From assembly GCA_964385105.1 (NCBI GenBank), contig CAYLMU010000002.1:53672-117671 (forward strand): DNA of 64,000 nucleotides, read 5' to 3'. The stretch comes from an uncultured Candidatus Saccharibacteria bacterium. GTDB taxonomy: Bacteria > Patescibacteriota > WWE3 > UBA101185 > UBA10185. The notes beneath the pieces are model-generated. The model saw only the letters and a program-made list of their open reading frames with translations, did not search any database and was not told the origin of the DNA. The number at the start of each line of letters is the position of its first letter. The stretch's first letter is position 1. Positions 39,879-57,963 of this stretch are shown here, one piece after another. The position numbers were made by a program, and so were the translations under genes.

Positions 39879-41657
39879 ATGTTAGATACAAAAATTGATA
39901 CAAACAAAGGAATAGAAGATGTACTGTATGAGCGTAACCTTATTAATGCCGACCAGTTGTCTGCCATTAAATTTGAACACGTTAATACCGGTAAAAATAC
40001 TCAGCAAATTATTAAAGAGCGCGGTTACGTAACAAATGAGGATTTTGTTAAAGCGTATGCGGAAGTATATGGAATTGAGTATATTAATCTGGAAGAAACC
40101 AAATTTGATAATACTGTATTAGATATTTTAAGCATTCAAATTGAAAAAAGGTATCAGGTTGTGCCATATAGGCTTGAAGGGGATATTTTGCATGTGGCAA
40201 TGGCTGACCCCTTAGATTTACAAACTATTGAGTTTTTAGAGCAAAAATCCGGATATCAGATAAAACCTTACGTTTCAACAGTTAAAGAAATAGAAAAAGT
40301 ATTAAGTGAGCAGCAAGGAAAAGCAATAACTCAAGAAATAAGTGCTGCAATGGAGGAGATTTCGCAGACTACCTTAAAGCTTAAGGGTGACTCGGGAGAT
40401 ATTGAAGCTGATGAAGCAACAATTAGAGATGCCCCGATTGCAAGAATTGTTGGAATGATACTTGAAACGGCAGTAAAAATAGGTGCATCCGACATTCACA
40501 TAGAACCTTTAGAAACTTTAACAAGACTGCGCTACCGAGTTGACGGTGTTTTGCTTGAAAAAAGGACTTTTCCTAGAGAAATGCACGATTCTATTGTTGC
40601 CCGTATAAAAATCCTGGGAAACATGAAAATTGATGAGAAAAGAATTCCTTTGGACGGCAGGTTTAAGGTTCAGGTGGGTGAAACAAGTACAGACCTTAGA
40701 ATTTCAACTCTACCTTCGGTTTATGGTGAAAAAGTTGTTATCAGGTTGTTAAAAGAAGAAGGAAATGTTTACACATTTAAAGATTTGGGGTTGCGTGGTT
40801 TGTCGCTAAAAAGATTTGAAGAAGCATTAATTAAACCGGTTGGGATGGTTTTGGTAACAGGGCCTACGGGTTCGGGTAAAACGGTTACAAATGCTACTGC
40901 TTTAAATAAATTAAATACAATAAAAGTAAATATTGTGTCAATTGAAGACCCTGTTGAAATTAGGGTGCCCGGTGTAACACATGTTCAGGTAAATCCTCAG
41001 GCAGGTTTAACATTTGCAACAGGATTAAGGTCATTTTTGCGACAAGACCCAAACATTATAATGGTGGGAGAGATACGAGACCAGGAAACTGCTGAACTTG
41101 CAGTACATGCCGCGTTAACGGGGCATTTAGTTATATCCACATTACACACAAATTCCGCAGCCGGTGCTCTACCCCGTTTACTTGATATGGAAGTAGAAAA
41201 CTTTTTATTGGCGTCTACTGTAAATGCTGTTTTAGCACAAAGACTTGTTAGAAGAATTTGTGAGTTTTGCAAAGAATCATATGAGGCTCCCGTAGAAGTT
41301 GTTGCAGAGATTAAGAAAGTTTTTGAAGATATTGAACCAAGCTCAACCATAATGCACAAAGACAAAGAAATTGCCGAAGCTATTAAAAAGATTAAAACCG
41401 ACAGTAAAATTGATTTATATAGAGGTAAAGGTTGTGATAAATGTGGGGGTAAAGGTTATAAAGGCCGAGTTGGAATATTTGAAGTTCTTGAAATGTCAGG
41501 CACAATTGCTCATTTAACATTAGAAAGTGCCCCTGCCGACAAAATTGAGAAAGCAGCAAAAGATGAAGGCATGATAACATTAATGCAAGATGGATATTTG
41601 CGTGTTGTTGAGGGTGTTACAACGCTTGAAGAAGTTATGAGAGTAGCAAAAAGTTAG
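39879..41657 (+). CDS. pilB: Type IV pilus assembly ATPase PilB (GspE family) with N-terminal MshEN-like domain and zinc finger
   Basis: Walker A GPTGSGKTVT; Asp box; His box; CDKCGGKGYKGRVGIFEVLE tetra-Cys motif. Confidence 0.9.
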   Translation: MLDTKIDTNKGIEDVLYERNLINADQLSAIKFEHVNTGKNTQQIIKERGYVTNEDFVKAYAEVYGIEYINLEETKFDNTVLDILSIQIEKRYQVVPYRLEGDILHVAMADPLDLQTIEFLEQKSGYQIKPYVSTVKEIEKVLSEQQGKAITQEISAAMEEISQTTLKLKGDSGDIEADEATIRDAPIARIVGMILETAVKIGASDIHIEPLETLTRLRYRVDGVLLEKRTFPREMHDSIVARIKILGNMKIDEKRIPLDGRFKVQVGETSTDLRISTLPSVYGEKVVIRLLKEEGNVYTFKDLGLRGLSLKRFEEALIKPVGMVLVTGPTGSGKTVTNATALNKLNTIKVNIVSIEDPVEIRVPGVTHVQVNPQAGLTFATGLRSFLRQDPNIIMVGEIRDQETAELAVHAALTGHLVISTLHTNSAAGALPRLLDMEVENFLLASTVNAVLAQRLVRRICEFCKESYEAPVEVVAEIKKVFEDIEPSSTIMHKDKEIAEAIKKIKTDSKIDLYRGKGCDKCGGKGYKGRVGIFEVLEMSGTIAHLTLESAPADKIEKAAKDEGMITLMQDGYLRVVEGVTTLEEVMRVAKS

Positions 41658-41682
41658 TATTTAAGTTTTAGGAGCCCTGCCC

Positions 41683-42762
41683 ATGGCTTTAAACACATCA
41701 CAAATATTAGAAAAAATTATTGAGCTGAGTGCATCAGACTTGCATTTAACTGTTGGAATGCCTCCTGTTATTAGAGTTAACACAAAATTAATGGTTCTTA
41801 AAGACCATAGTGTGTTAACTATTGATGAAATCTCACAATTTTTAACAAAAGTTTTAACACCTGAACAAAAAAATGTATTTGAAGTAAACAAAGAAGTGGA
41901 CTTTTCAGTAGCTCTTGGTAATAAAGCAAGGTTTAGGGTAAATGCTTTTTATCAAAAGGGTTACCCTTCGGTAGCGTTAAGAACAATACCAATGGTAGTT
42001 CCCTCTTTAGAAAGTTTACATTTACCTCCGGTACTTACAAAACTCACGCTTTTAAAGCAAGGGCTTGTTTTAGTTGTTGGACCCACCGGGCATGGTAAAT
42101 CTACCACAATTGCGTCAATGATTGACCACATTAATGAAACACGCTCTGAACATATTCTTACAATTGAAGACCCTATTGAATATATTTTTACAAATAAAAG
42201 ATCACTGGTTGAGCAAAGAGAAATGTATCTTGATACCCATTCATGGGATGCGGCTTTACGTTCTATTTTAAGGCAAGATCCAAATGTTGTATTTATTGGC
42301 GAGATGCGTGACACCGAAACAATTCAGTCAACATTAACAATTGCAGAAACGGGCCATTTGGTATTTGCAACACTTCATACAAATTCAGCGTCTCAAAGTG
42401 TAGACAGAATTATTAGTTCGTTTCCCGAAATTAAGCAACTTCAAATAAAAATGCAGCTTTCACAAGCTTTGGAAGCAGTTGTATCTCAGCGATTAATCGA
42501 ATCCCCCAACAAAGGAATGATTCCTGCAATTGAATTATTGTTAGCCAGCGACGCGGTTAAAAGTACAATAAGAGAAGGTAAAACACATCAGCTTGAAAAT
42601 ATTATAAGTACAAGCTCAAACATTGGAATGATAAATATGGAATCAAGTTTGGCACTTTTGGTTCAAAAAGGCGATATAACCATGGATAATGCATTAAAGT
42701 TTGCAATGAATCCTGAGTTATTGCGTCGCCTGTTAAAAAGTTATAGTTCAACAGAAAAATAA
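41683..42762 (+). CDS. pilT: Twitching-motility (retraction) ATPase PilT
   Basis: GPTGHGKSTT, GEMRD and AIRNLIRE-like motifs; 359 aa; AGGAG SD. Confidence 0.9.
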   Translation: MALNTSQILEKIIELSASDLHLTVGMPPVIRVNTKLMVLKDHSVLTIDEISQFLTKVLTPEQKNVFEVNKEVDFSVALGNKARFRVNAFYQKGYPSVALRTIPMVVPSLESLHLPPVLTKLTLLKQGLVLVVGPTGHGKSTTIASMIDHINETRSEHILTIEDPIEYIFTNKRSLVEQREMYLDTHSWDAALRSILRQDPNVVFIGEMRDTETIQSTLTIAETGHLVFATLHTNSASQSVDRIISSFPEIKQLQIKMQLSQALEAVVSQRLIESPNKGMIPAIELLLASDAVKSTIREGKTHQLENIISTSSNIGMINMESSLALLVQKGDITMDNALKFAMNPELLRRLLKSYSSTEK

Positions 42763-42768
42763 AACAAT

Positions 42769-43971
42769 ATGGCCGAATTTAACTACATTGCAATGGATAA
42801 TAAAGGTACAAGAAAATCAGGTACCGTTGATGCCCGTTCACGGGATACAGCTGTTTCACTTTTAAAAGAGCAAGGATACTACGTTTTATCACTTGAAGAA
42901 AAAAAATCTACATTTATGGATTCGTTTATAGAATTACGAGGTGTGCCGTTTGGTGACGTTGTTTCATTTACAAGGCAGTTTTCTACAATGATAGGAGCCG
43001 GTTTGGCTATTTCAAAAGCATTAAATGTACTGGCCGCACAAACTACAAATAATAAATTCAGAGGAATATTAAATGATGTATTGCGCGATGTAGAAGGAGG
43101 AGCGTCGTTAGCCGGGGCTTTGGGAAGGTTTCCTGACACTTTTTCTACAACATATCAGTCCTTGGTGGCTGCGGGTGAAGCGTCTGGCCGTCTGGATGAG
43201 ATTTTAAAAAGGCTTGCAGATACAATGGAGGCTGAGAGAGCCTTAAGGGCTAAATTTAAATCTGCAATGATTTATCCGGTAATAGTTTTAATTGCAATGG
43301 GAGGTGTTTTTATTATTTTAATGGTGTCTGTTGTACCTAAGCTTGCACAACTTTACGAAAGCATGAATATAGACCTTCCTTTAACCACTAAAATGATGAT
43401 TGCAGTATCGGAATTTATGTCTAATAATCTTATTTTGGTGATTTTAGGCATTTTTGGAACAATTCTTGGAATTCGATACTTTTTGCACACTCCCGGCGGC
43501 GAACTATTAAAATCAAGACTTTCACTTTCTATGCCTGTTTTTGGAAAGATAAATAAAAAGAAAGAATTAACCGAATTTACACGAACATTAGGTTTATTGG
43601 TAAATTCAGCAGTACCCATTGTAGATGCTTTAAATATTGTTAGTTCAGTTGTTACAAGCGAGGCGTATCGTGAAGGTGCAAAACAGGCAGCCGTGAGTAT
43701 AGAAAAAGGCGGAACTTTATCAAATTATTTAAAGCAAAATGAAAATTTTCCTCCAATTCTAGGAAACATGGTAGCCACAGGTGAAGAAACAGGAAAACTT
43801 GATGAAATTTTAGAAAGACTAGCCGACTTTTTTGACGAAGAAACAGAACATGCGGTTGAGAGTTTATCTGCCGCACTTGAGCCTGTGATATTAATTTTAC
43901 TTGGTGCAATGGTTGGATTTTTGATCATTTCGATTATTACACCTATTTACAAAATTACTGCTTCTATATAG
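42769..43971 (+). CDS. pilC: Type IV pilus platform protein PilC (GspF family)
   Basis: Two GspF repeats and 3 TM helices; N-terminal MAEFNYIAMDNKGTRKSGTVDA. Confidence 0.9.
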   Translation: MAEFNYIAMDNKGTRKSGTVDARSRDTAVSLLKEQGYYVLSLEEKKSTFMDSFIELRGVPFGDVVSFTRQFSTMIGAGLAISKALNVLAAQTTNNKFRGILNDVLRDVEGGASLAGALGRFPDTFSTTYQSLVAAGEASGRLDEILKRLADTMEAERALRAKFKSAMIYPVIVLIAMGGVFIILMVSVVPKLAQLYESMNIDLPLTTKMMIAVSEFMSNNLILVILGIFGTILGIRYFLHTPGGELLKSRLSLSMPVFGKINKKKELTEFTRTLGLLVNSAVPIVDALNIVSSVVTSEAYREGAKQAAVSIEKGGTLSNYLKQNENFPPILGNMVATGEETGKLDEILERLADFFDEETEHAVESLSAALEPVILILLGAMVGFLIISIITPIYKITASI

Positions 43972-44001
43972 CAAAATTACTGAAAGGGGGTGACAGAGAA
44001 A

Positions 44002-44511
44002 ATGAGAAATGGAAATAAAGGTTTTACGTTAGTTGAGCTTTTGATTGTTGTTGCAATTATTGGTATTTTAGCCGGTGCTGTGTTAATTGTTATTAACCCT
44101 ACCGAATTAATTAGAAGAAGCAATGACTCAAAAAGATTATCTGAGCTTGATACATTGAATAAAGCTCTTATTTTAGCAACAACCGATGGTGAAATAGTAT
44201 TAACAGCATGTGCTTCAAACTGTACTAGCGCAACAGGAACACAATCTATTGCCGGTTCGGGTTATGTCACATTCACAATTAATACAGGTATGACCGGATT
44301 AGGAAAATATCTTTCTACACTGCCTGTTGATCCGGTTAATGACACTGCAAGAGGTTTGTACTACTCTTACCAGGCAGATGCAACCAACCAGACATTTGAG
44401 TTAAACGCAGTTCTTGAGTCTTCACAGAACAGTGGAAGAATGGCAGCAGATGGTGGTAACGATAACGCAGTATTTGAGATTGGAACAGATCCCGGTCTTG
44501 ATTTACTATAA
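44002..44511 (+). CDS. pilA: Type IV pilin (class III signal: MRNGNKG|FTLVELLIVVAIIGILA)
   Basis: Prepilin cleavage site G/FTLVE with Glu at +5; AAAGGGGG SD; own terminator downstream. Confidence 0.8.
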   Translation: MRNGNKGFTLVELLIVVAIIGILAGAVLIVINPTELIRRSNDSKRLSELDTLNKALILATTDGEIVLTACASNCTSATGTQSIAGSGYVTFTINTGMTGLGKYLSTLPVDPVNDTARGLYYSYQADATNQTFELNAVLESSQNSGRMAADGGNDNAVFEIGTDPGLDLL

Positions 44512-44546: not shown

Positions 44547-44586
44547 AAAAGACCTGCTTATTTAATAAGCAGGTCTTTTGTTATAC
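44547..44586 (+). terminator. Rho-independent terminator after pilA
   Basis: aaaagacctgcttatttaataagcaggtcttttgtt. Confidence 0.6.
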
Positions 44587-44594
44587 TTTAAAGT

Positions 44595-45476
44595 ATGGAA
44601 ATTTTATTCTATGGGCTAGTATTTATTGCCGGTTTATTTATAGGTTCTTTTTTAAACGTAGTTTCAGACCGAGTGGTAAACGGTAAAAAACTTTTACTTG
44701 GACGCTCTGAATGTGATGAATGCCGCACCACACTTGGTTCAAAAGACCTTGTTCCCCTACTCTCTTTTATATCTTTGCGTGGCAAGTGCCGGTATTGTAA
44801 AGCAAAACTTTCATACTACTACCCTATTTCAGAAATTCTAACCGGATTAGTATTTGTTGGAATTGCACATTTACTCAACTTTTTTGAAAACGCCAACAAT
44901 TATTATGCGTGGGTTATGCTGGCATATTTAATTTTTATCGGAAGTGTTTACATTGTGCTATTTTTAACTGATATTAAATATACGCTAATACCCAATAAAG
45001 TGGTCTATCCTGCTATAGCCGTAATTGTATTATTCCTAATCGGAAACTTTTTGTACATAGTTTATAGTTCTTACAATAGTTTGCAAAGTGATGCTTTAGG
45101 CCCTTATTTAATCGAATCCGGTTTTTGGCAATTGCAAATGAGGCGAATGTTTATGGGGCTGGTTTACACTTTTATAAGTACTGTTGTAATTGCAGGGTTT
45201 TTTTGGGTATTGACGCGTATTAAAAATGGTGAAGCAATGGGCGGAGGAGACTTAAAACTTGCTATTTTAATTGGTTTGTTTAACGGATACCCGCGCAATA
45301 TTTTGGCAATTTTTTTGGGATTTTTATTTGGAGCTATAGCTAGTGTGCTGCTAATGTTCTTAAGGCGTAAAGGTATGAAGGATACTATTCCTTTTGGGCC
45401 GTTTTTGATTTTAGGAAGTGTTATTGCGTTTGTTTTTGGTAATAGGTTGATTGAGCTATATTGGGGGTTGTTTTAG
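44595..45476 (+). CDS. pilD: Prepilin peptidase PilD (A24 family) with N-terminal tetra-Cys zinc motif
   Basis: CDECRTTL...CRYCKAKL; 8 TM helices; catalytic Asp regions. Confidence 0.85.
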   Translation: MEILFYGLVFIAGLFIGSFLNVVSDRVVNGKKLLLGRSECDECRTTLGSKDLVPLLSFISLRGKCRYCKAKLSYYYPISEILTGLVFVGIAHLLNFFENANNYYAWVMLAYLIFIGSVYIVLFLTDIKYTLIPNKVVYPAIAVIVLFLIGNFLYIVYSSYNSLQSDALGPYLIESGFWQLQMRRMFMGLVYTFISTVVIAGFFWVLTRIKNGEAMGGGDLKLAILIGLFNGYPRNILAIFLGFLFGAIASVLLMFLRRKGMKDTIPFGPFLILGSVIAFVFGNRLIELYWGLF

Positions 45477-46251
45477 GGTTTGTTTTTTAAGGAGTAGTGT
45501 TTACTTAGTACTGTAGCTACTATTTTATGAAGCACTTCGTCTTCCACTATTTTCATTGAATACGTCCTAAAAAAGTCTGCAAGATGGTATGAAGCATACA
45601 TTAATGGGTCATCTCCATATTTATGACCGACTTCAATATATTTTTTAAGTCCGTAGTTTAATCCGTGTATGGGTATATCCCCCATTTCTACATCGTCAAA
45701 AAATTCTTTGTTGAAAACTTTTACTAAATCTAATGCTGCTTTTTCGTGTTCGGGAGTTGCGTTTTTATATTGATAAAGATAGTAAGCAGTATTTAAATTT
45801 TGGAGTAGGTGTTTTTTAAGTATAGATGCATTATAAACTACATAATTATATTGAATAATTGAAATATTCTTTAAGCTAGAGGTATAGTTTCTGGGGTCCT
45901 TAAAAACCCATACTAAGTGCTTAAAATTAACATGTCCCAGTCATACGCGCGACTACAAGTAACTGTGCTACTTGATGTAAATTTATAAATGGGAATAGAT
46001 TTTTGCCCCTATCTATTCTCATAAGATGCGTTTACTAGGGGCTTAGAGTTGTATACCAAGAATAATGAAACTTCAAATTTAGGAGCATATGTAAATTATT
46101 TTATTGTTAGCTTTTGAACGTGAGTTTGGTGTAGAATTTGATGGGGATTTTAAAGGCAGGACACCCCATAGTTGCATTACTTTACTGATACTGTATAATA
46201 GTCCGTAATTTAGAAATAACCGGCATAAGCCGGATAGCTCCTGGAGAGAAA

Positions 46252-46629
46252 ATGATGAAAAGATTAACCCTTTTAGTTCTGGTAGTGGTAGGGATGATTG
46301 TTACTTTGGGAATCAATGGTAGTGCTTTGTCATCGCCAGATGTTTCTGGCGGAGCACTTGAAATTGGGACTCCGGTAATCGTAATCCGTTATGATGGGGG
46401 GCAGTTAACAGTTGCTACGCTTGAACCATCCTCAAGAGTTTTTGACTTTGAGGTGGATGTAGCATCTGTTACTTTCCTAGAGTGTGGAGCCGTTGAACAC
46501 GTCCCCGTGTTTGCAGGTGATACAGGACTATTTGCCGGAATTTCCGAGGAAGTGTGGAGTAACGAACGTGTTGCAAGATTTAATCTTCAACAGCCGTTTG
46601 ATGCCTGCAACATCCTATACGGTAGATAG
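46252..46629 (+). CDS. Small secreted protein (125 aa) with signal peptide; GC-rich gene
   Basis: MMKRLTLLVLVVVGMIVTLGINGSALS; GGAGAG SD; hairpin terminator at about 46645-46690. Confidence 0.5.
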   Translation: MMKRLTLLVLVVVGMIVTLGINGSALSSPDVSGGALEIGTPVIVIRYDGGQLTVATLEPSSRVFDFEVDVASVTFLECGAVEHVPVFAGDTGLFAGISEEVWSNERVARFNLQQPFDACNILYGR

Positions 46630-46712
46630 CACTTTGTTTGTAAATCCGGATCGGTTTGTTTGCTTATGGTAAACATAGCCGATCCGTTTCATTCCGATTT
46701 AGCTAAATATCA

Positions 46713-46741
46713 TTGACATGTAAAAAAATCATTGTCATAAT
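46713..46741 (+). promoter_or_regulatory. Candidate promoter (TTGACA, 17 nt, CATAAT with an upstream TGT) that would give a leaderless or very short-leader mRNA for the 46750 gene
   Basis: cattgacatgtaaaaaaatcattgtcataatttattgtaATG. Confidence 0.35.
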
Positions 46742-46749
46742 TTATTGTA

Positions 46750-47376
46750 ATGTCCAATTATAGCCCCGAAATAAATTTGAATCTTAGTGAAAGTAGACGT
46801 GGGAATAGAAATTTGATCCTTGTTTCACTCCTAATAATTTTTGTTTTTGCTGTCACTTTATTGCTAATTTATACATATTATTTAAATTCAACAACTGAAA
46901 ATCAGGCCAAAGAAGACTCAGATATGTTGTTAAATACAGTTCCGCAGGATAGCTATAATGTAGTGTTTCCCAATGTTTCCTATTCAATTGATGCTGATGG
47001 AATGTGGAGACTAAAAGTATTTCAACCTATACTTAAAGAATTCGTATCTGAAAACGGGAATAATTATTTAGTGGTGGAATATGATGAAGGCAGTACAAAA
47101 GTTTCAAAAAGAGTGTTTGTAACGTCTAATAATACGGAATATTTGGATAGGATATCATTTAAAGAAGGTGATAACTTAAAACTTGTAACATTCGATGAAT
47201 TAAAGCAATTATTAAATACTGAAGGGCGGATTAGTATAAGTTATTTTGAAACAACCCCCACTATTGAATCGCTTACGGATGATTTTTGTTCCAATTTAGT
47301 TAGAAGATGCGCTTTAGCACGTTTGGATGTGGAGTATAAAAGCTATTTCATATCAAGTGAGGTTATAGAGCAATAA
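46750..47376 (+). CDS. Hypothetical N-terminally membrane-anchored protein (208 aa)
   Basis: TM helix LILVSLLIIFVFAVTLLLIYTYY; its stop overlaps the start of the next gene. Confidence 0.5.
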   Translation: MSNYSPEINLNLSESRRGNRNLILVSLLIIFVFAVTLLLIYTYYLNSTTENQAKEDSDMLLNTVPQDSYNVVFPNVSYSIDADGMWRLKVFQPILKEFVSENGNNYLVVEYDEGSTKVSKRVFVTSNNTEYLDRISFKEGDNLKLVTFDELKQLLNTEGRISISYFETTPTIESLTDDFCSNLVRRCALARLDVEYKSYFISSEVIEQ

Positions 47377-50354
47377 TGAAGAAAATTAAGTTTATTATTT
47401 TTTTTACAATTTTTTTACTTACATTTTTATATATTAACAAAAGCAATGTATTAAATGCTTATAGTGATATATTTTGTTCTGCTGGACAATATTGTTCTGG
47501 TGTAGGTACATATCAGAAACGCGTTGGATGTGTTACGGTTCCAGATAACGACAACTATGCAAGTTGTGTCACTCAGTACTCATCACAACCTGTTGTGTGT
47601 CTACAAAGTGACTGTACATATGAAGGTTTTGAGACAGGGAGTTGGTGCCGAGAAAGTGTAATTCACATTGATAGGCAGGGTGCGTGTACTACAATAACTG
47701 ATGATTACTATGTGTCGGGTACCTGTTGTCAGCAAGCCGGAGGATCTACTGGATACTGTGGTGATGGGGTGTGTCGTGCTGGAGAAAGTAATTCGAGTTG
47801 TCCTGCAGATTGTCCTCCCCCACCGCCTCCTCCTGATCCGGAAGCCTATTGTGGAGATGGTACCATAGACCCTGGCGAAACATGCAGTAATTGTCCGGCA
47901 GATGTTGGTGCTTGTCAAAATTTCTGCGGGTGTCTTCCTGATCGGTGCAATAGAGACGAATCGCAATGGCCCGGTAATGGCAGTTGCATAAGAACACCTG
48001 ATTGTGGAGCAAATATTTGCCCGGGGGGCGCACATGGTTGGTACTGTGCCTGGCCAAATAGTAACGCCTGTAACAATCCGGGTCCAGCTACAGAAAATGT
48101 TGTAGGTTATGTGAAAGATCAAAACGGCAGTCCGGTAAGTGGTGTGCCTATGACAATTCTTTACAAAAACAGTAGTGGTACCACAATATCTGGTACAGAC
48201 ACTAGAGTGACAGACTCTAATGGTAGGTTTGTATTTGAGAATTTGATAAATAGGCAACATTATGAAGTCAAACCAGGCCTCACCGCCGACCAAATGTTAG
48301 CATGGGGTTTCACAAGTGCTGGAACTGCCGAAGCATGCGGTAATGATTACAACTGCAAAAACCACTTTAATGGAGGTGCTCAGGTACCGGTAGGTTCGCC
48401 ATCATATAATGGCCAAAGAGTTGGGGAAATTGGGTTTGACGGTACTATGCACGGTGATGGTTGTGGTGCAAGAAAATGTTATGTTGGACCAAACTCCACC
48501 GGTGTCTGTAATGATGGCAACCGTGGAAGTTATTCGGGATCAATCGTACACCACTCAGAATGGCCATCCGGTGGGCACTGTAACTTTGTATTCAACAGGC
48601 AAACAAACAACCCTCCTACCGGTTACTTTCACTATTTAGCACATTACAGGGGTACAACACTTCTTGGTGTATGGGGAAACAATAGTAATATTGGTAATGG
48701 TGTTGTTATATACCCACCTGCTCCGCCAGCTCCCATTGGTCAAATATTTGTACAGCCGGGAGATCATATTTTAATGTATGGTACCGGCCATGATTCCGAT
48801 GCTAACTTAGGGCGTATAAGATTTATAAAACAAAAATTCAATCCTGAAACAAATGCCGTAATCGGAACTTATTCATATATGCCTGCAACAACTCAAACCA
48901 ACTGTTCTCCAAGTTCAACATGTTATGAAAATGGCGGTGAGGTTTGGAATATTACTGCAGCAGACGTAGGTACCTGGTCAGTAAGCATTGAAGTTGGCGA
49001 TCGTACAATGGTTAATTATGATTTGAATAATTTAAATAGTACATTCAACAGCAGATGCTCCGGTCATAGATGGGTAAACCCATTAAAATGGAGTGACTGC
49101 GGAAACGGTGATACATTTACCGTTCATGTAAGAATTCCTCCTACTTATACAATTTCCGGAGAAATAAGAGAAATTGTGCCACTACCTACAGGGCATCAAT
49201 GTGCATCGCACAATTTAGATTTTATGAATAACTCAAAAATAAGTAATGATGGCAGTTTAGATTCAACCGGTAATGATGACCCTCGCGAACAGTTTTATTC
49301 GACTAATCAGTCGGCTCCACCAAATCCGGATGATGGGGATTGGGAAAGTACGCCTGGTAACGGCTTTGAAATTAGGGGTGTTCCACCAGGAACGGGAAGG
49401 TTTCTGGCCGCAAGTACACTTCATGTGGATCGTCACAATGGTATAGGATATAGGTTAAAGTGTATATCTGTTCCCGGATTCGGCGTACATGACCTTTCTA
49501 GTGGTACAACACCCAACTTTGTTAACATCACACAAAATTTAAGTGGAGTAAGATTTGGTTACGAATACTTTCTTACATACAACAGCGGATGGCTACAAGG
49601 TTGGGACGGTGACGTTTTTGGAGGATCTACCGTTAACTTTAATATCCATCCGGATCAGAGATTAGGCAGGGGTCTTGCCACTGCATTCTCGGGTAACTTT
49701 GTGTCCGGAGTGGCTCCGGCGAAAAGAGCAGAATCAAACCGCTGGGCAAACAATGTTTCAGACTCATTTTGGCCTCCACAATTCAGCACTGAAGCTCCTG
49801 CAGGAGCCATTCAAATTTCAAACTTAAGTAACTTGGCTGAAAACACTATTTATAAAATAACGGCTACAGAACTTAATGCAATATTAAATCAGCAGGGACG
49901 GTTAGATTACACTATTGCTAATATAGCCGGAAGTCCGGGGGGCGTTGCACTTGTTTATGTAACCGGTACAAATACAGTAACAGTTAACAGAAGTATGGTA
50001 AGTGCAGATGACCCGCGCGATAGAATTTTATTTATATCAGAAGCACCATTTGTATATGCTGTACCTACAGTCCCAACTCAACCTGGTTCGGCACAGATTC
50101 AGTTTGGTTTGATTACCACAAGTTCAATTACATTTCCAACCCTAGTAGCAGAAAACAGTCCATTTCCTGACACGTCGGTATCTGTTGAAGGGCCGTTAAT
50201 TGCTAAAGGAGACATTGTAGTTGAAAGAAATCTTAAAGAAGGAAATGCTCAAACTCCTGCAGTAAGAGTATTATATAGCCGGGTTTATCTTGATAGTATA
50301 AGAAGATTTGAAAATCCGTTAAGGCAGTATAGTGTTAGATGGGAGACAAATTAA
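47376..50354 (+). CDS. Large secreted Cys-rich protein (992 aa) with a poly-Pro linker and a CarboxypepD_reg-like/Cna-B-like beta-sandwich segment. By position it is a candidate pilus-associated adhesin
   Basis: Signal peptide MKKIKFIIFFTIFLLTFLYI; more than 30 Cys in the first 280 aa; PPPPPPPDPEAYCGDG; VVGYVKDQNGSPVSGVPMTILYKNSSG...TDSNGRFVFENL. Confidence 0.6.
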   Translation: MKKIKFIIFFTIFLLTFLYINKSNVLNAYSDIFCSAGQYCSGVGTYQKRVGCVTVPDNDNYASCVTQYSSQPVVCLQSDCTYEGFETGSWCRESVIHIDRQGACTTITDDYYVSGTCCQQAGGSTGYCGDGVCRAGESNSSCPADCPPPPPPPDPEAYCGDGTIDPGETCSNCPADVGACQNFCGCLPDRCNRDESQWPGNGSCIRTPDCGANICPGGAHGWYCAWPNSNACNNPGPATENVVGYVKDQNGSPVSGVPMTILYKNSSGTTISGTDTRVTDSNGRFVFENLINRQHYEVKPGLTADQMLAWGFTSAGTAEACGNDYNCKNHFNGGAQVPVGSPSYNGQRVGEIGFDGTMHGDGCGARKCYVGPNSTGVCNDGNRGSYSGSIVHHSEWPSGGHCNFVFNRQTNNPPTGYFHYLAHYRGTTLLGVWGNNSNIGNGVVIYPPAPPAPIGQIFVQPGDHILMYGTGHDSDANLGRIRFIKQKFNPETNAVIGTYSYMPATTQTNCSPSSTCYENGGEVWNITAADVGTWSVSIEVGDRTMVNYDLNNLNSTFNSRCSGHRWVNPLKWSDCGNGDTFTVHVRIPPTYTISGEIREIVPLPTGHQCASHNLDFMNNSKISNDGSLDSTGNDDPREQFYSTNQSAPPNPDDGDWESTPGNGFEIRGVPPGTGRFLAASTLHVDRHNGIGYRLKCISVPGFGVHDLSSGTTPNFVNITQNLSGVRFGYEYFLTYNSGWLQGWDGDVFGGSTVNFNIHPDQRLGRGLATAFSGNFVSGVAPAKRAESNRWANNVSDSFWPPQFSTEAPAGAIQISNLSNLAENTIYKITATELNAILNQQGRLDYTIANIAGSPGGVALVYVTGTNTVTVNRSMVSADDPRDRILFISEAPFVYAVPTVPTQPGSAQIQFGLITTSSITFPTLVAENSPFPDTSVSVEGPLIAKGDIVVERNLKEGNAQTPAVRVLYSRVYLDSIRRFENPLRQYSVRWETN

Positions 50355-50355: not shown

Positions 50356-51327
50356 ATGAATAAAAAAATAGTCAACAATTCAGAAAAAGGACAAGTTTTA
50401 CTTTTTGTAATAGTAGCGATGACTATTGTGTTGGCACTGGGTGTTGGTGTATCGCTTGATACTATTTCATCAATAACACAGGTAAGCAACACTGATACGT
50501 CTCAAAGGTCACTTGCGGCAGCAGAAGGCGGAGTTGAGAAGTTTTTGGTACTTGATAATTCTTTGTTACGACAGTTTGCTGATATTGCCGGGAGTCCTAA
50601 TGACGGTAGATGGCCATTATTATGTGCCAATATACCTGGTGTGACAACAGAACCTTTAGAAGGTGGGGGCTATGCCGGTTGTAAAGTAACTTACCAGGGT
50701 GCAACAGGAGCAAATGGAGATCCCATTGACGCTAAAGCTGTAGTTAAAGTTGAGGAATATACAACTAATACTACTACCGGAAATGGGTCAGAGATAAATA
50801 TTTTGAGAAATGATGTAGGTGAATTTGATTTACGAGGATATACACATTCTAACTTAACAATGTGTTGGAATCATAATAATGCAATTGACCTTTATGTAAC
50901 CGGCCATACCTATGTAGCCCCACAAACAACAAAAATCATATTAAGATGTCAAAACTGTGGTAATGGTTCACAATGGGATTTTGGAACAGCAAACGTACTT
51001 ACTGCAACTAGTTCTGGCAATGGATATACATCTTGCAGACAGCTCCAAATAAGCCAGGGTCATTTTCCTAGCAACCCAGCTTTTATAAGAGTAAGACCAT
51101 TATTTAAAGCTTCTCCACCTGTACAAAGCGTTGAGGTTGCAATATTCCCGCAGGGAGGTCACAGTTTACCTGTTCAAGGCTACAAAATCACATCTGTAGG
51201 GTCACTTACCGACAATACAAACGTTCAGGTCACACGAACTGTAACAGTATATAAATCAAATCCCACTCCTATAGGATTATTTGATTTTTCTGTGTATTCC
51301 GGTGAAGACCTTTACTCGATTTTATAG
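50356..51327 (+). CDS. PilX-like minor pilin/pilus-associated protein (non-cleaved hydrophobic N-terminus)
   Basis: MNKKIVNNSEKGQVLLFVIVAMTIVLALGVGVSL; paralog of the 54645 gene. Confidence 0.5.
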   Translation: MNKKIVNNSEKGQVLLFVIVAMTIVLALGVGVSLDTISSITQVSNTDTSQRSLAAAEGGVEKFLVLDNSLLRQFADIAGSPNDGRWPLLCANIPGVTTEPLEGGGYAGCKVTYQGATGANGDPIDAKAVVKVEEYTTNTTTGNGSEINILRNDVGEFDLRGYTHSNLTMCWNHNNAIDLYVTGHTYVAPQTTKIILRCQNCGNGSQWDFGTANVLTATSSGNGYTSCRQLQISQGHFPSNPAFIRVRPLFKASPPVQSVEVAIFPQGGHSLPVQGYKITSVGSLTDNTNVQVTRTVTVYKSNPTPIGLFDFSVYSGEDLYSIL

Positions 51328-51457: not shown

Positions 51458-51901
51458 GTGCAGAGCATGTTAAAGAGAACTAATGAAAAAGGTTTTACGT
51501 TAGTTGAGCTTTTGATCGTTATTGTAATTATTGGTATCTTGGCAGGATTAGTTATTACAATTATTAATCCTCGAAGAATGCAAATGAGATCAGGCCATTC
51601 AATTATAAGGGCTAATGTCGGTAGGGCTTGTCAAGCGATTATTGCATGTGCTTCTTCAACAACAACACCTGAAACATCTTGTAACACTGGTGCTTTAGCT
51701 GGATTTAATCAACCAAATACACCTAATGGTCAACCGTATCCAGTTAACCCTACTGTTAGTGCGCAAACGATTACATATGCAAATACACCTGTTGCTGCAT
51801 GGGATAACTGTCAATATACTTGCACATACTATAGGACTACTGTTGGTGGAAACCAAGGTGGTTCAAGCACTTTAGTAGGAACAAACTGTATCGACAACTA
51901 A
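51458..51901 (+). CDS. Type IV pilin and major-pilin candidate (MLKRTNEKG|FTLVELLIVIVIIGILAG)
   Basis: GAAGGGAGGTG SD; candidate upstream promoter (TTGACA at about 51345); strong terminator immediately downstream; 4 Cys in the C-terminal half. Confidence 0.8.
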   Translation: MQSMLKRTNEKGFTLVELLIVIVIIGILAGLVITIINPRRMQMRSGHSIIRANVGRACQAIIACASSTTTPETSCNTGALAGFNQPNTPNGQPYPVNPTVSAQTITYANTPVAAWDNCQYTCTYYRTTVGGNQGGSSTLVGTNCIDN

Positions 51902-51953: not shown

Positions 51954-51992
51954 AGCCTTGACACAAAAATAACATACAGCCATACTATAAAT

Positions 51993-52508
51993 ATGAAAAA
52001 ACTGCCCCGAGGTTTTACTATTATTGAGCTTTTAATTGCTGTTGTACTTATTGGAATACTTTCAGGACTCGTTATTGCAGTTATTAATCCCCGTACGTTT
52101 CAAGGCAGGGGTCGTGACGCTCAAAGAGTTAGCGACTTAAAAACAATTCAATCTGCACTTGAACTTTATTTTTCGGATAATAGACGTTACCCTATTTCCG
52201 CTTGGACAAGAATACGTGGCAACGATACTGTAACAAATGCGCTCACAAGCGGAAACTATATAAACTCAGTACCTGTTGATCCCATGGCTTCTGGCTCACA
52301 AGATAATCCATGCGGGGGCGGTATAACCGGTTACAATTACCGATACAGATCTACCGAAACTGGCACAGCATACGTGTTAACAGCTACAATGGAGAATGCT
52401 AATTCAAATCAGGGTAATGAATGTAACGGATTAAATAGATGGAGTGCGTTAGGATGTTCATTATCTGCGCGAATGGCTGATGTGTGCTATGGAGTTGAAA
52501 ATCCTTAA
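51993..52508 (+). CDS. Pseudopilin/minor pilin (MKKLPRG|FTIIELLIAVVLIGILSG), GspG/PilE-like
   Basis: Class III signal with Glu at +5; the track ORF begins at 51906 but the pilin leader begins at the ATG at 51993. Confidence 0.7.
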   Translation: MKKLPRGFTIIELLIAVVLIGILSGLVIAVINPRTFQGRGRDAQRVSDLKTIQSALELYFSDNRRYPISAWTRIRGNDTVTNALTSGNYINSVPVDPMASGSQDNPCGGGITGYNYRYRSTETGTAYVLTATMENANSNQGNECNGLNRWSALGCSLSARMADVCYGVENP

Positions 52509-53016: not shown

Positions 53017-53580
53017 ATGAGTCTGCCCGATTTTAGTAATAATTCCCAAGGTTTCACAATTATTGAGATTCTAGTAGTAGTTTCACTAATTGCTATATTA
53101 ACCGGGCTCACAATACCAAACTTTACAAGTTATTTAAGGGCACAGGCGTTAAAACAAGCTCAAGATCAAATTGTTGTAGATTTAAGAAAAATTCAAAACA
53201 GAGCTTTATCGGGTGTTGGTTATCAGCCAAACGGAAATACAACTCACTGGGGTGTTTTGTTTAGAAATAACACTAATACATACCACTATTTTATTGCATC
53301 AAGAAACCCCATAAACTATTCTTCATCTTGTAACGATGCGTTAACAAATGTGGGTAGTCTTGAATCAAGTAGCCCACTTCCCGAAAACATAGTCATTAGA
53401 ATGGCAAGTGCCCCAATTCAGTGTATATATTTTGATTTTGAACGGGGTAATAGGGTGAGTCATCCATCAAGTTTGACTACCATTAGAGTTTCGCGTCCCG
53501 GAGATACACAATGTATTGGCATTGAAACAACTAATGTAGGCCGTATAGCAAGTCTTTCAAATCCTTTGTCATGCAACTAA
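53017..53580 (+). CDS. Pseudopilin/minor pilin, FimT/GspH-like (SQG|FTIIEILVVVSLIAILTG)
   Basis: Class III signal. Confidence 0.65.
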   Translation: MSLPDFSNNSQGFTIIEILVVVSLIAILTGLTIPNFTSYLRAQALKQAQDQIVVDLRKIQNRALSGVGYQPNGNTTHWGVLFRNNTNTYHYFIASRNPINYSSSCNDALTNVGSLESSSPLPENIVIRMASAPIQCIYFDFERGNRVSHPSSLTTIRVSRPGDTQCIGIETTNVGRIASLSNPLSCN

Positions 53581-54068
53581 AAAAACTAAACGAAAAAGGA
53601 ATAGGATTAGTAGAAACAATAATTGCACTTGGCGTTGCTGTAATTGTTATAACATCCCTTGTGTCACTTTCGGTTTATACCTTGCGTACCTCTAATCGCG
53701 GAAAATTATATTTACAAGGCTCAAAGCAGGCTAATGAGGGTTTAGAACTTGTGAGAGCATTTAGAGATCAACAGCCGACCTGGAACGATGTTATTGTTGC
53801 ATTTCAAAATTGCGATAATGGAGCATTGTGCCACATATCTACAAGCGGTTCTTCTTTGTCGCCGCGACCTGGAGAATTTATAAACACAAATGGTACGACC
53901 GCTACTGCTGACGACGTGTTTTGGTACTTTACTGCCAGGGGTTCAGGAAGTAATATAACCGCCACCGACAATGTAATAAGAATTCAGGTTAGATCCAGAT
54001 GGTTTGTTGGAGATGATGAAGTTGATGCTTATGTTTACACTGATCTTTCAAACTGGAGGAACAGGTAA
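53571..54068 (+). CDS. Pseudopilin/minor pilin, PilV/GspI-like (NEKG|IGLVETIIALGVAVIV)
   Basis: Class III signal; overlaps the neighbouring genes. Confidence 0.6.
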   Translation: MQLKKLNEKGIGLVETIIALGVAVIVITSLVSLSVYTLRTSNRGKLYLQGSKQANEGLELVRAFRDQQPTWNDVIVAFQNCDNGALCHISTSGSSLSPRPGEFINTNGTTATADDVFWYFTARGSGSNITATDNVIRIQVRSRWFVGDDEVDAYVYTDLSNWRNR

Positions 54069-54069
54069 C

Positions 54070-54642
54070 ATGAACCAAAAGGGTTTTACGCTTGTGGAAT
54101 TACTAGTGATCATTACACTTTTGGCTGTTACGGCCGGCGTTACTGCAGATATTGTATTAACACTGGTTAGAAGCTATAACAAAACCCGTGTTACTAATGA
54201 AGTTGAACAAGTAGGTAATTTTGCCATAACCAAAATAGAAAAAGAGCTAAGATCGGCAACAAGTGTAGTATCACCGAGCATTGGCGCAAGTAGCAATTCA
54301 ATATGTTTTTTAACAAAAATAGGAAATAATGATCGAAGTGTACAGTATGTGGTAGATCCGGTGTCGGGATTATTAAGAAGATCGGAGTTTACAAATTCAA
54401 GTGGTTGTACTGGTGGAACAGTACCTGCAGGTACTGATCCTGTGTTTAGCGTAGGTCAGGGAGGGGTAAGAATTTCAGGTGCCAGTGCTAATTCGGCATT
54501 TACCCGCTTAAGTACCTCACCAGATGTTGTAAAAATTAAATTTGAATTTACGCAATCTAGCGAAGATTCTGCAGGAGGAAGGGCATTTACCGGAAACGTA
54601 ATACTTGAACAAACAGTTGTAGTTCGTGGAACTTACAATTAA
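54070..54642 (+). CDS. Pseudopilin/minor pilin, PilW/GspJ-like (MNQKG|FTLVELLVIITLLAV)
   Basis: GGAGG SD upstream of the ATG at 54070; the track ORF starts earlier at 54004. Confidence 0.65.
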   Translation: MNQKGFTLVELLVIITLLAVTAGVTADIVLTLVRSYNKTRVTNEVEQVGNFAITKIEKELRSATSVVSPSIGASSNSICFLTKIGNNDRSVQYVVDPVSGLLRRSEFTNSSGCTGGTVPAGTDPVFSVGQGGVRISGASANSAFTRLSTSPDVVKIKFEFTQSSEDSAGGRAFTGNVILEQTVVVRGTYN

Positions 54643-54644
54643 CC

Positions 54645-55457
54645 ATGAAACAAGAAAATTCCCAAAAAGGACAAACTTTAATAATTATAGTTTTTATCAT
54701 GATTGCCGCCCTCGCAATTGGTGTGAGTGTATCAAACAGATTTATTACAACTTTATCTATTACAAGTGACGCTTATGCCGGTTATCAGGCTCAGGCTGTA
54801 GCAGAAGCAGCGATTGAAAATATTTTGACTTTAACATCTACACAGCTCAAAGAATTTATTCAATTTAATTCTTGTGGTTCATACTGCCAGCTTGAAATTG
54901 TGGGTCCTGACGGTGTTGTTCAAACCGCAACTGTTACATTAAGCACTTTAGGAACTGATTCTCAGCCTTTTACTACTCGTTTAAGTAGAGATGAAATTAC
55001 AGAAATTAATTTAAACGGGTATGGTAATAATAAAACACTAAGTGTTTGTTGGAATGCACCACCATCAGGAGAATTACCTTCGGTTTATGGAATTTTACTC
55101 AGAGGTACACAAGGCAATTATGTTGCAAATAACTATGCATATTACTCAGCAGGAAGCAGTCAAATTAATGGATTTTCACCGGCAGTAAGCGCTAACGGGT
55201 ATCAAAATTGCATGATTTTAAATACAGGAACAAACCCGCAGGCACTAAGAGTGAGGTCGATTTATAATGATGTTGAAGTCACAGTGATACCTGATTCAAG
55301 TGCTACATTGCCCACTCAAGGAATCTTAATAGAATCCGTTGGGCGTGTTCAAGACAGTGTAAAAACAGTTTCGGTTATAAAATCAGAAAACATGGTTCCG
55401 CTTGATTTTGACTACATTTTGTATCAAAAATCCGAATCAGAGCCTTTATCAAATTAA
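54645..55457 (+). CDS. PilX-like protein, paralog of 50356-51327
   Basis: MKQENSQKGQTLIIIVFIMIAALAIGVSVS. Confidence 0.5.
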   Translation: MKQENSQKGQTLIIIVFIMIAALAIGVSVSNRFITTLSITSDAYAGYQAQAVAEAAIENILTLTSTQLKEFIQFNSCGSYCQLEIVGPDGVVQTATVTLSTLGTDSQPFTTRLSRDEITEINLNGYGNNKTLSVCWNAPPSGELPSVYGILLRGTQGNYVANNYAYYSAGSSQINGFSPAVSANGYQNCMILNTGTNPQALRVRSIYNDVEVTVIPDSSATLPTQGILIESVGRVQDSVKTVSVIKSENMVPLDFDYILYQKSESEPLSN

Positions 55458-55479
55458 CCATGTGCTGTAAAATAAAGTT

Positions 55480-56505: not shown

Positions 56506-56506
56506 A

Positions 56507-57091
56507 ATGGCACAAAGTATAAATCTTATTCCAAAAGAAGAAAAATTTGAACAACGCAAAGAAAAAGTAGTTAAGTTAAGCTCTGTAATTGCTGTTGTTA
56601 TTTTATTAGTTGTGATTGGAGTTAGCACCTACTATTGGTATACCGTAAATAATTTAAAAACATCCATTAAAACAGCAGAAACCCGCACTGAAGACCTAAG
56701 AACCGATATAAGAGGTTTATCTGAAATTGAAATCGTAGCAAGGTCACTTGATGCAAAATACAACATTTTAAATGACATCTTTACAAATCGAAAGAGATAT
56801 TCTGTTCTATTAAGCGAACTGCAAAGAAGAGTTCCTGAAGGTGTGACTATTGAGTCATTAACTATAACCGGAGTTGCCAATGAAAATGTAAATATTGCCG
56901 GACAAGGTCCAGATTATATTTCAATTGCACGTTTCATTAACACGCTTTCTGACACTCAGTTTTCAAGCGCCACGCCAGGTATGGAAGATATGTTTCATGA
57001 TGTAACGCTTAATACAGTCACTTTTGACTCTCAGGATTCAACGGTAAGCTATTTTATAGTTACAAAATTTAATGAGGCTTTACTTAAATAA
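56507..57091 (+). CDS. pilN: PilN-like bitopic protein
   Basis: INLIPKE...single TM...periplasmic domain; translationally coupled. Confidence 0.7.
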   Translation: MAQSINLIPKEEKFEQRKEKVVKLSSVIAVVILLVVIGVSTYYWYTVNNLKTSIKTAETRTEDLRTDIRGLSEIEIVARSLDAKYNILNDIFTNRKRYSVLLSELQRRVPEGVTIESLTITGVANENVNIAGQGPDYISIARFINTLSDTQFSSATPGMEDMFHDVTLNTVTFDSQDSTVSYFIVTKFNEALLK

Positions 57092-57963
57092 TGGATAATC
57101 AAGCACCACCAATACCACCTATTCAAGTTGAAGAGCATGAAAAGAAAAAATTAGATACATTAGCCTTTAAGAGGTTTATAGCAAATTTTCTTATTCCTAT
57201 AACTGCCCTGATAATTTCAGCACTCTTGTTTATTTTTGTAATTCTGCCTTCTATAAATGAAATACCACTGCTTCGTGCAGATTTGAATGAAAAACAAGCG
57301 CTTGTTGACCAGCTTGATGCAAAGCTATTAAAATTGCGCAATCTTACTGATTTTAAAGGTAGTGTTGATGAAAATAATGAATTACTATCAACGGTTTTGG
57401 TTGAAGAACCGCTTGTTCCTCAATTGCTGACCCAAATTGACCGGATTGCCGGTGAATCAGGAGTAACTATTACAAAAATTAACTATGCTACAAGCGAAAA
57501 CACAGGTCCGGCCGATCCGAATGCCGAGGTTGTTAAACCTCCATATAATGTTGTTACAATTAATGTTGGCAGTGACAGCACTTATGACCAAATCGTTACA
57601 TTTTTATCAAATCTTGAAAATGCAGGCAGAGTTGTTGATATTAACAGTATCAGATTTAACACACTCGAAGATGAAGAAAGATCCGGAATATTTTCATCCT
57701 CATTTGTTATTTCTTCACCATATGTAAAAGTTGAAACAAGTGCAGTAACAGATGATCCGATTTCTTTTGATTTAGCTAATGCCCAGTTTCAAAACCTAAT
57801 GAGTAAGCTCAAGGCTTTGAAAATATACGATATTTCAATAGATGAGGTTATTGACATTCAAAATCTTCCTAATGACGCTACAAATGAAGATGAAGAGCCT
57901 ACAGAAGTAAGCGACATTGAAGAAAGTGAAATAATGCCCGAGCAACCTGAGCCTGTATTTTAA
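57091..57963 (+). CDS. pilO: PilO-like bitopic protein with acidic C-terminal tail
   Basis: TM helix, then a coiled coil LLRADLNEKQALVDQLDAKLLKL. Confidence 0.65.
   Translation: MDNQAPPIPPIQVEEHEKKKLDTLAFKRFIANFLIPITALIISALLFIFVILPSINEIPLLRADLNEKQALVDQLDAKLLKLRNLTDFKGSVDENNELLSTVLVEEPLVPQLLTQIDRIAGESGVTITKINYATSENTGPADPNAEVVKPPYNVVTINVGSDSTYDQIVTFLSNLENAGRVVDINSIRFNTLEDEERSGIFSSSFVISSPYVKVETSAVTDDPISFDLANAQFQNLMSKLKALKIYDISIDEVIDIQNLPNDATNEDEEPTEVSDIEESEIMPEQPEPVF

Follow-up and report, generated by a model that had tools for sequence, protein, structure and literature searches.

We examined a type IV pilus (T4P) locus at positions 39879-57963 of a 64,000-nucleotide (64-kb) stretch of contig CAYLMU010000002.1 (assembly GCA_964385105.1), referred to as the window herein. 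All substantial open reading frames (ORFs) of the locus but one are carried by the plus strand, and the gene order is pilB, pilT, pilC, pilA1, pilD, tm208, big992, X331, pilA2, mp200, mp173, mp187, mp165, mp212, X270, pilM, pilN, and pilO. Families were assigned by Pfam and NCBIfam hidden Markov model (HMM) searches of the locus proteins and of 30 other window ORFs, and the starts of pilB (39879), pilA1 (44002), X331 (50356), pilA2 (51467), mp200 (51993), and mp212 (54070) were refined. As a comparison set, we used 81 related loci (L001-L081), in which ORFs were called and then compared with the window proteins, while a 6-kb Logan contig of the same strain as the window gave an independent gene call. 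Every gene that a first-pass annotation of this DNA had listed was found on the plus strand where it had been placed, and the machinery genes are supported by the HMM matches given here.

39879..41657, plus strand: pilB, extension ATPase, 592 amino acids (aa) from the ATG at 39879; Pfam T2SSE 412 bits and MshEN 55 bits
41683..42762, plus strand: pilT, retraction ATPase; TIGR01420 (PilT/PilU family) 430 bits against a cutoff of 319, and Pfam T2SSE
42769..43971, plus strand: pilC, platform protein; Pfam T2SSF in two stretches, 205 bits; GspF/PilC models 290-367 bits
44595..45476, plus strand: pilD, prepilin peptidase with a Cys-rich N-terminal domain; Pfam A24_N_bact 94 bits and Peptidase_A24 41 bits
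55480..56505, plus strand: pilM; Pfam PilM_2 149 bits; TIGR01175 177 bits against a cutoff of 133
56507..57091, plus strand: pilN; Pfam PilN 28.9 bits against a cutoff of 22.8
57091..57963, plus strand: pilO, with an acidic C-terminal extension; Pfam PilO 34.2 bits against a cutoff of 22

Judged from these matches, the machinery is type IVa pilus-like, complete, and of the monoderm type proposed in the first-pass annotation, comprising PilB, PilT, PilC, PilD, PilM, PilN, and PilO together with pilins and lacking a secretin or PilP in the window. The absence of the latter two had also been claimed, and neither the secretin PilQ nor PilP gave a Pfam match in the 19 locus proteins and 30 other ORFs of the 64-kb window. 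Likewise, the GspC, GspD, GspL, and GspM families had no match among the locus proteins and other window ORFs scanned, neither ComEC nor ComEA turned up in the window ORFs that were scanned, and transfer RNA and Rfam scans yielded nothing inside the locus. PilB, whose 592-aa form is the version on the NCBI record, scored 565 bits with the NCBIfam T4a PilB model, which is under the equivalog cutoff of 676, and 525 bits with GspE. Binding of cyclic di-GMP by the PilB MshEN domain is not claimed, the dedicated NCBIfam motif having scored 13.9 bits against a cutoff of 38.

The relatives of the locus agree with the CPR-like host that had been suggested for it. PilM relatives on one-genome-per-species contigs were all found in metagenome-assembled genomes (MAGs) from the candidate phyla radiation (CPR, Patescibacteria), with the best at 66% identity and named WWE3 MAGs at ∼50%, and the X270 homologs carry names from candidate division WWE3. 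The closest relative, L001 (a Logan contig), is fully syntenic including the flanks, where holB lies upstream and trmD, a KH protein, S16, and RNase III lie downstream. The gene order of the window locus is also kept in 10 WWE3-like loci, and a generic plan of pilB-pilT-pilC-pilin-pilD, 5-8 pilin genes, orthologs of mp187, mp165, mp212, and X270, and pilM is shared by ∼50 CPR loci. Because 7-10 pilin genes per locus, between pilD and pilM, are the norm in these ∼50 related loci, the pilin repertoire is not the unusually large one that the first-pass annotation described; Nanosynbacter lyticus TM7x, to which we return below, has 12-13. What was described as one locus is in fact two blocks split by variable non-pilus DNA at 45477-46749.

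Among the L020-L081 records, many that have a CPR-type pilus locus bear the names Gammaproteobacteria, Pseudomonadales, Bathyarchaeia, or Methanoperedens, evidently as mislabelled bins or through automatic naming. Many related MAG records go under 'Saccharibacteria', 'Gammaproteobacteria', or 'Bathyarchaeia', which we judged to be unreliable automatic names, since their loci share the same CPR pilus architecture.

Pilins and the minor pilin block

The pilins and pilin-like proteins outside the accessory module proper, with the two hairpins that follow the major-like pilins, are as follows. A slash marks the position after the Gly of each leader.

44002..44511, plus strand (ORF open from GTG 43990): pilA1, major-like pilin, leader MRNGNKG/FTLVE; N_methyl 38.4 bits; GspG-like globular part
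44547..44579, plus strand: terminator-like hairpin after pilA1, 15-bp stem, then a T-rich tail
51467..51901, plus strand: pilA2, second major-like pilin, leader MLKRTNEKG/FTLVE, 6 Cys; N_methyl 37.1 bits
51927..51945, plus strand: strong terminator-like hairpin after pilA2, GCCCCGGATATTCCGGGGC then T8
51993..52508, plus strand: mp200, GspG/PilA-like pilin, G/FTIIE; N_methyl 28.5 bits; GspG model 43.6 bits
52480..53001, plus strand: mp173, GspG-like pilin, non-canonical G/ISIIE; N_methyl 18.1 bits, which fails; GspG model over residues 18-139, 31.6 bits
53017..53580, plus strand: mp187, minor pilin, putative GspH/FimU/ComGD position; N_methyl 26.9 bits; weak GspH, PpdD, and ComGD matches
53571..54068, plus strand: mp165, minor pilin, putative GspI/PilV/ComGE position, G/IGLVE; no N_methyl match
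54070..54642, plus strand: mp212, minor pilin, putative GspJ/PilW/ComGF position, 190 aa from the ATG at 54070; N_methyl 29.6 bits
54645..55457, plus strand: X270, PilX/GspK/ComGG-class pilin-like protein, 270 aa, G/QTLII without Glu+5, predicted β-jelly-roll accessory domain

Seven proteins carry a class III signal with Gly-1 and Glu+5, namely pilA1, pilA2, mp200, mp173, mp187, mp165, and mp212. The first-pass annotation had given this signal as G/FTxxE, which is correct for five of the seven and incorrect for mp173 (G/ISIIE) and mp165 (G/IGLVE). It had also proposed N_methyl as a check on the pilins, and at the Pfam cutoff of 21.2 bits, as with TIGR02532, the same five pass (pilA1, pilA2, mp200, mp187, and mp212); mp173 falls short and mp165 has no match, yet both retain Gly-1 and Glu+5. 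Relatives of mp173 mostly read G/FT..E or G/VT..E, and in the mp165 family both the Gly and the Glu are invariant across 15 relatives. Because their families keep the signal, we count mp173 and mp165, from their sequences, as divergent pilins despite the failed HMM.

Strong Shine-Dalgarno (SD) sequences belong to both pilA1 (AAGGGGGTG) and pilA2 (GAAGGGAGGTG), and Gly, Ala, Ser, and Thr (GAST) make up 37.7% of the former and 37.0% of the latter, compared to 25% of PilB. The strong SD and terminator of its own that had been reported for the second pilin are thus found for both. On the grounds of strong SD, own terminator, and high GAST content, we regard these two as the shaft candidates, and the shaft would be formed by one or the other. 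The pilA2 type of pilin is variable or absent in related loci, with only 4 clear orthologs. In contrast to the shaft candidates, mp200 and mp173 are probably low-abundance GspG-like pilins. The T2SSG and ComP_DUS matches of mp200 are sub-threshold, and a role as a ComP-like DNA receptor is not adopted, as the ComP_DUS score of 23.7 bits lies under the cutoff of 27.3.

The last four pilin genes are mp187, mp165, mp212, and X270. Two Cys are invariant in the family alignment of mp187. For the other two smaller proteins, the family-wide matches are sub-threshold: the PilV model is matched by 8 of 15 mp165 family members and ComGE by 6 of 15, while in the mp212 family all 17 members match ComGF (best E 7e-9) and a PpdB-type model, and 10 of them match GspJ. 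The start of mp212 is most likely at 54070, directly 3' of the mp165 stop, and the gene call on the Logan contig agrees. X270 is the last gene before pilM and is larger than the minor pilins that precede it. Its AlphaFold2 model, computed from a 51-sequence alignment, has a predicted local distance difference test score (pLDDT) of 87.5 and shows a 54-residue N-terminal helix (residues 8-61) followed by beta domains. In fold searches, the model resembles the pseudopilins GspI and GspK; Foldseek matches to jelly rolls, carbohydrate-binding modules, and lectins were weak. According to this model, X270 is a pilin-fold protein carrying a jelly-roll accessory domain.

Taken together, the gene order, the weak family-wide HMM matches, and one confident model suggest that mp187, mp165, mp212, and X270 are the counterparts of GspH-I-J-K, FimU-PilV-W-X, and ComGD-GG. 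Since the scores are sub-threshold and mostly confined to the helix, it is the gene order that supports this assignment.

The accessory module and the spacer after pilD

Three genes between the pilD spacer and pilA2 make up, with pilA2 itself, an accessory module.

46750..47376, plus strand: tm208, single-pass membrane protein, first gene of the module; no Pfam family
47376..50354, plus strand: big992, 992-aa secreted protein in four parts; Sec-like signal; weak CarboxypepD_reg, Big_1, and SdrD_B matches
50356..51327, plus strand: X331, PilX/GspK-class pilin-like protein, G/QVLLF without Glu+5, 323/331 aa; paralog of X270

The stop codon of tm208 overlaps the start of big992 (TAATG at 47376), and the ATG of X331 at 50356 is 1 nt after the big992 stop. 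The four parts of big992 are a Sec-like signal, a Cys-rich stretch at residues 31-240, an immunoglobulin (Ig)-like segment at ∼240-325 that has weak matches only, and a conserved novel C-terminal domain at ∼650-992. Its Sec-like N-terminus and 38 Cys bear out the earlier description of a Cys-rich secreted protein; 26 of these Cys fall within residues 31-240, beside CGDG-type repeats and a poly-Pro tract. In 5.8 billion proteins, one full-length homolog was found, at 36% identity. A HMMER scan of 1.84 billion cluster representatives gave 81 matches, of which ∼30 cover the C-terminal domain and the remainder the Cys-rich repeats or the Ig-like segment.

When an HMM was iterated across the related loci, this C-terminal domain of ∼340 aa proved common to large proteins encoded at the same position. 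They are 730-1261 aa in length and were found in L001, L002, L004, L005, L007, L008, L012, L014, L016, and L017. While the L001 protein aligns with big992 end to end, the N-terminal parts of the others show no detectable similarity to it. In all ten loci where the family was found on the pilus strand, it is found within the pilus locus at a place between pilD and the minor pilins; L028 has a weaker match, on the opposite strand. A single-pass membrane protein of ∼200-300 aa with tm208-like topology precedes the large protein in nine of the ten loci, and an X331-type gene lies 3' of it in most. The module genes are also among the most diverged of the locus, with identities to L001 of 24% for tm208, 36% for big992, and 44% for pilA2, compared to 52% for X331 and 64-91% for the machinery.

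Because L015 has the rest of the locus without the module, the gene content argues that the module is an insertion in the WWE3-like subclade. It also duplicates within the clade, as follows from the tandem copies in L007 (9-4914) and L014, where two large-protein genes are arranged in the order large protein, PilX-like, tm, large protein, pilin. The second large-protein copy has its own tm gene upstream, and the first copy is cut by the edge of the locus.

The first-pass annotation had called X331 and X270 PilX-like paralogs. They are true paralogs (BLASTP E 4e-22, 26% identity), although Glu+5 is missing in both, and the G/Q-hydrophobic N-terminus without Glu+5 is conserved in the relatives of each family. 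The tapirin model NF051896 also matches X331, its N-terminus aligning with residues 5-86 (window 50356-50610; E 1.3e-4). As a side observation, this alignment hints that the cellulose-binding tapirins of Caldicellulosiruptor, which are encoded at a monoderm T4P locus, start with the same Glu5-less PilX/GspK-type helix.

The remaining features lie in the spacer and in front of the two downstream gene runs.

45477..46749: variable non-pilus spacer of ∼1.3 kb; no family match and no homolog in the 81 related loci
45473-45685, minus strand: ORF remnant in the spacer, its frame open for ∼150 codons (45473-45930); first ATG/GTG/TTG 70 codons before the stop; no family match
46252-46629, plus strand: orphan 125-aa ORF with a signal peptide; SD GGAGAG and a hairpin-rich region downstream; no family match and no homolog in the 81 related loci
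46713..46741, plus strand: best sigma-70-like promoter match of the region, TTGACA-17-TGnCATAAT, 11/12 positions, ending 8 nt before the tm208 ATG
51958-51986, plus strand: promoter-like site before mp200, ending 6 nt before the ATG

The minus-strand frame at 45473-45930 may be a decayed gene or a gene with an unusual start. In L001, the position of the spacer is occupied by an unrelated 185-aa gene, and the spacer DNA is non-homologous there. Neither tm208 nor mp200, the latter being the first gene of a tightly packed run to pilO, has an SD, and their operons may be transcribed as leaderless mRNAs. The arrangement suggests about four transcription units, namely pilB-pilT-pilC-pilA1; pilD; tm208-big992-X331, possibly with pilA2; and mp200 through pilO.

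Proposed working of the pilus and alternative readings

We consider it probable that a single type IVa-like pilus machine without a secretin, with core minor pilins and a clade-specific accessory module, is encoded by this locus, and that the bacterium belongs to the CPR/Patescibacteria, probably to the WWE3 lineage. By homology, prepilins bearing the Gly-1/Glu+5 signal would be processed by PilD, PilB would drive fibre assembly on the PilC platform, which a PilM-PilN-PilO alignment complex would hold, and retraction would be the work of PilT. The window encodes no channel through an outer membrane, which is what one expects of a cell that lacks such a membrane. The proteins mp187, mp165, mp212, and X270 would prime assembly and end at the tip, X270 being a Glu5-less cap that would display its lectin-like jelly-roll domain. 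From synteny, the translationally coupled tm208, big992, and X331 with the downstream pilA2 would form a clade-specific accessory insertion, in which the Sec-exported big992 would bind a host surface via its Cys-rich, Ig-containing, fast-evolving N-terminal part while its C-terminal domain, which is conserved, and X331 as a dedicated PilX-like pilin would hold it at the pilus. As such, big992 may be the host-binding adhesin of the pilus and would be a PilY1-like tip adhesin by analogy of function, not by homology. More tentatively, and with considerable doubt, we propose that the large Cys-rich proteins of the WWE3-like clade are a new class of T4P tip adhesin, a non-homologous replacement of PilY1 whose C-terminal domain docks a hypervariable host-recognition region via X331, helped by the small membrane protein. 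If true, these proteins would probably determine the host range of the uncultivated epibionts in question.

Several observations weigh against this account. The association of big992 with the pilus is inferred from synteny. Its C-terminal domain matched neither a Pfam family nor a PDB sequence, the C-terminal β-propeller domain of PilY1/PilC gave no Pfam match in big992 or 10 family members, and the AlphaFold2 model of big992, built from a two-sequence alignment, has a pLDDT of 30. The second tm/large-protein pair in L007 and L014 is followed directly by a pilin with no PilX-like gene, so the pairing of large protein and X331 is not strict. As for the minor pilins, the H-I-J-K assignment comes from matches under the family cutoffs, mainly in the N-terminal helix, and the family profiles of mp187, mp165, and mp212 matched PDB pilins in the N-terminal helix only or not at all, giving no class assignment. 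Lastly, the promoter and terminator scans gave no more sites than shuffled sequence, and for this reason the operon structure is an inferred one.

A serious rival to the tip-adhesin reading, although we think it the less likely of the two places for these proteins, is that tm208 and big992 constitute an independent, wall-anchored adhesin or wall protein of the cell surface, set in a permissive spot of the pilus locus, with X331 as a spare PilX paralog. The ordinary Sec-type signal and adhesin-like Ig domains of big992 would suit such a protein, as would the spot after pilD, which is variable and accepts unrelated genes. Furthermore, other CPR clades have unrelated large ORFs at various places in the locus, and one large-protein copy in L007/L014 has no PilX-like gene after it. 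However, the family always lies between pilD and the minor pilins on the same strand in the ten loci, the tm208 and big992 genes are translationally coupled to a pilin-like gene, and if a docking domain were combined with a binding domain, the expected pattern would be the one seen here, conserved at the C-terminus and hypervariable in the N-terminal part. Pam pili of CPR (bioRxiv 10.64898/2026.03.03.709456), which have Ig-like donor-strand pilins PamA/B and chaperone/usher-like factors, were rejected as a candidate. The NCBIfam Pam models were unmatched by tm208, big992, X331, the 125-aa ORF, and the other unknown window ORFs, and the PamR model reached E 0.057 for one relative in the mp212-family scan.

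Compatible with a single machine, and in essence the composite pilus of the first-pass annotation, is the plausible reading that one machinery makes two fibres, of pilA1 and of pilA2 (e.g., for adhesion/twitching and for DNA uptake), each maybe with its own cap (X270, or X331 with big992). We lean against it, while acknowledging that it has points in its favor: both of the major-like pilins have a strong SD, a terminator of their own, and the GAST bias seen in sheared proteins, and the PilX-like proteins are likewise present as two paralogs. In Thermus thermophilus, moreover, one machinery assembles wide (PilA4) and narrow (PilA5) pili, and the PilA5 narrow-pilus chain of Thermus is among the PDB matches of a minor-pilin family profile search. 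TM7x also makes two distinct T4P filaments (PMC11623550), but it has two sets of pilB/pilC/pilMNO, compared with the one visible in this window. The ComP_DUS match of mp200 is sub-threshold, ComEC and ComEA did not appear among the window ORFs scanned, and the variable distribution of pilA2-type pilins in relatives likewise speaks against a dedicated second fibre.

It appears highly improbable that, instead of a retractile surface pilus, the locus makes a pseudopilus, whether type II secretion system (T2SS)-like or of the ComG competence type. Several of the pilins do score best with GspG/H and ComG models, and the GspE and PilB scores of PilB (525 and 565 bits) are not far apart; in addition, CPR bacteria are naturally competent (PMC10187176). 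Nevertheless, we reject the T2SS and ComG readings because PilT, above its family cutoff, is present together with PilM, PilN, and PilO, while the Gsp-specific components GspC, GspD, GspL, and GspM are unmatched among the locus proteins and window ORFs scanned and the ComG models are matched only under their cutoffs. ComG operons are not known to carry PilT or PilMNO. In TM7x, T4P-2, which is lost in viable pilin mutants, contributed to host association and not to competence.

The single retractile pilus remains our preferred reading, and its interest lies in the biology of its likely host. T4P are the best-supported host-attachment and motility organelles of CPR/Patescibacteria and are essential or important for episymbiosis in cultivated Saccharibacteria. 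The present locus is a well-resolved example from the uncultivated WWE3 neighbourhood. For work on CPR host specificity, it offers a proposed assignment of a core minor pilin block with conservation in many CPR classes, a jelly-roll PilX-type cap modelled with confidence, and a concrete candidate for a clade-specific, fast-evolving adhesin module; the understanding of how CPR pili are built is unchanged by it.

Elsewhere in the window, an 829-aa P-loop ATPase is encoded at 22805-25294 (plus strand), with matches to TrwB/VirD4 coupling proteins and HerA/DUF87 and weak matches to CedD/TraD. Its neighbours are a 243-aa ORF at 25303-26034 with no known family and, ∼4 kb downstream, a tyrosine recombinase at 29106-30137. 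This region may be part of a monoderm-type conjugation-like or DNA-translocation system of the kind described for Patescibacteria (PMC12102498). Three plus-strand ORFs of 317-370 aa (3252-4364, 6989-7942, and 7939-8931) have no Pfam or NCBIfam family, the latter two being adjacent and upstream of two PDZ proteases (S41 and HtrA-like). At 20083-20457 and 20459-20830 (plus strand) lie adjacent stand-alone response-regulator receivers, with no kinase among the ORFs scanned.

Comparison with known systems

One close precedent is the generic CPR pilus. Type IV pilus genes were reported from a WWE3 genome in 2013 (PMC3812714, Kantor et al.), and co-localised PilB/PilT, PilC, PilM, PilN, PilO, and PilD with expanded pilins and with PilQ not found are CPR-wide (PMC6744442, Meheust et al. 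2019). The locus shares the same co-localised machinery, pilin expansion, and apparent lack of PilQ with the systems of both studies, which work at the family level; in neither is the H-I-J-K-like arrangement of the four final pilins described, nor is the WWE3-clade module.

Outside the CPR, the parallels are partial. The tapirins of Caldicellulosiruptor (NF051896) are likewise large surface adhesins in or next to a monoderm T4P locus, and their N-terminus aligns with X331; however, the match reaches 20 bits against a cutoff of 600, covers the N-terminal helix only, and includes no similarity in the binding domain. Clostridial T4P of Gram-positive bacteria, reviewed by Melville & Craig (cited in PMC6744442), have pilins, PilB, PilC, PilD, PilM, PilN, PilO, and PilT and no secretin, which is the same list as here, but they belong to another phylum and have no detectable similarity in the pilin globular domains or the accessory module. 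The core minor pilin and tip complexes (GspH-I-J-K; FimU-PilV-W-X with PilY1 of Pseudomonas and Myxococcus; ComGD-GG) are similar in that four consecutive minor pilins end in a larger Glu5-less pilin and that a large non-pilin secreted protein is encoded beside a PilX-class gene. The fold of X270, resembling GspI and GspK, and the weak family-wide PilV/ComGE and ComGF/GspJ matches, all under cutoffs, extend this likeness. Yet the accessory domain of X270 is a jelly roll, whereas GspK has an alpha-helical insertion, and big992 has no PilY1/PilC domain match and is not a homolog of PilY1.

A further close system is that of Nanosynbacter lyticus TM7x, in which the pili of Saccharibacteria have been dissected genetically and functionally proven (PMC11623550, Grossman et al. 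2024). T4P-1 of this CPR organism is similar in having one locus with pilB/T/C/D/M/N/O and several pilins and no secretin, and in pilins that diverge far more than the machinery. By description only, X270 can be likened to TM7x PilX1, for which no PilD signal is predicted and which carries an accessory domain of the β-jelly-roll kind, its discussed role being that of a lectin-like protein at the tip (PMC11623550); X270 is Glu5-less and would carry a comparable domain. The two organisms differ in that the 12-13 pilins of TM7x are spread over four loci with a second machinery set (PMC11623550), compared to one locus and one set here. They differ as well in the accessory genes, since a module of a tm protein and a large Cys-rich protein is not reported for TM7x, whose candidate adhesin PilX2 is a pilin fused to a β-propeller.

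Taken together, these comparisons indicate that the first-pass interpretation was right in kind but not new, as the features it held to be unusual are the CPR norm. The locus is a further example of a known, experimentally studied kind of pilus system, and its modest novelty is the WWE3-clade accessory module with its undescribed C-terminal domain.

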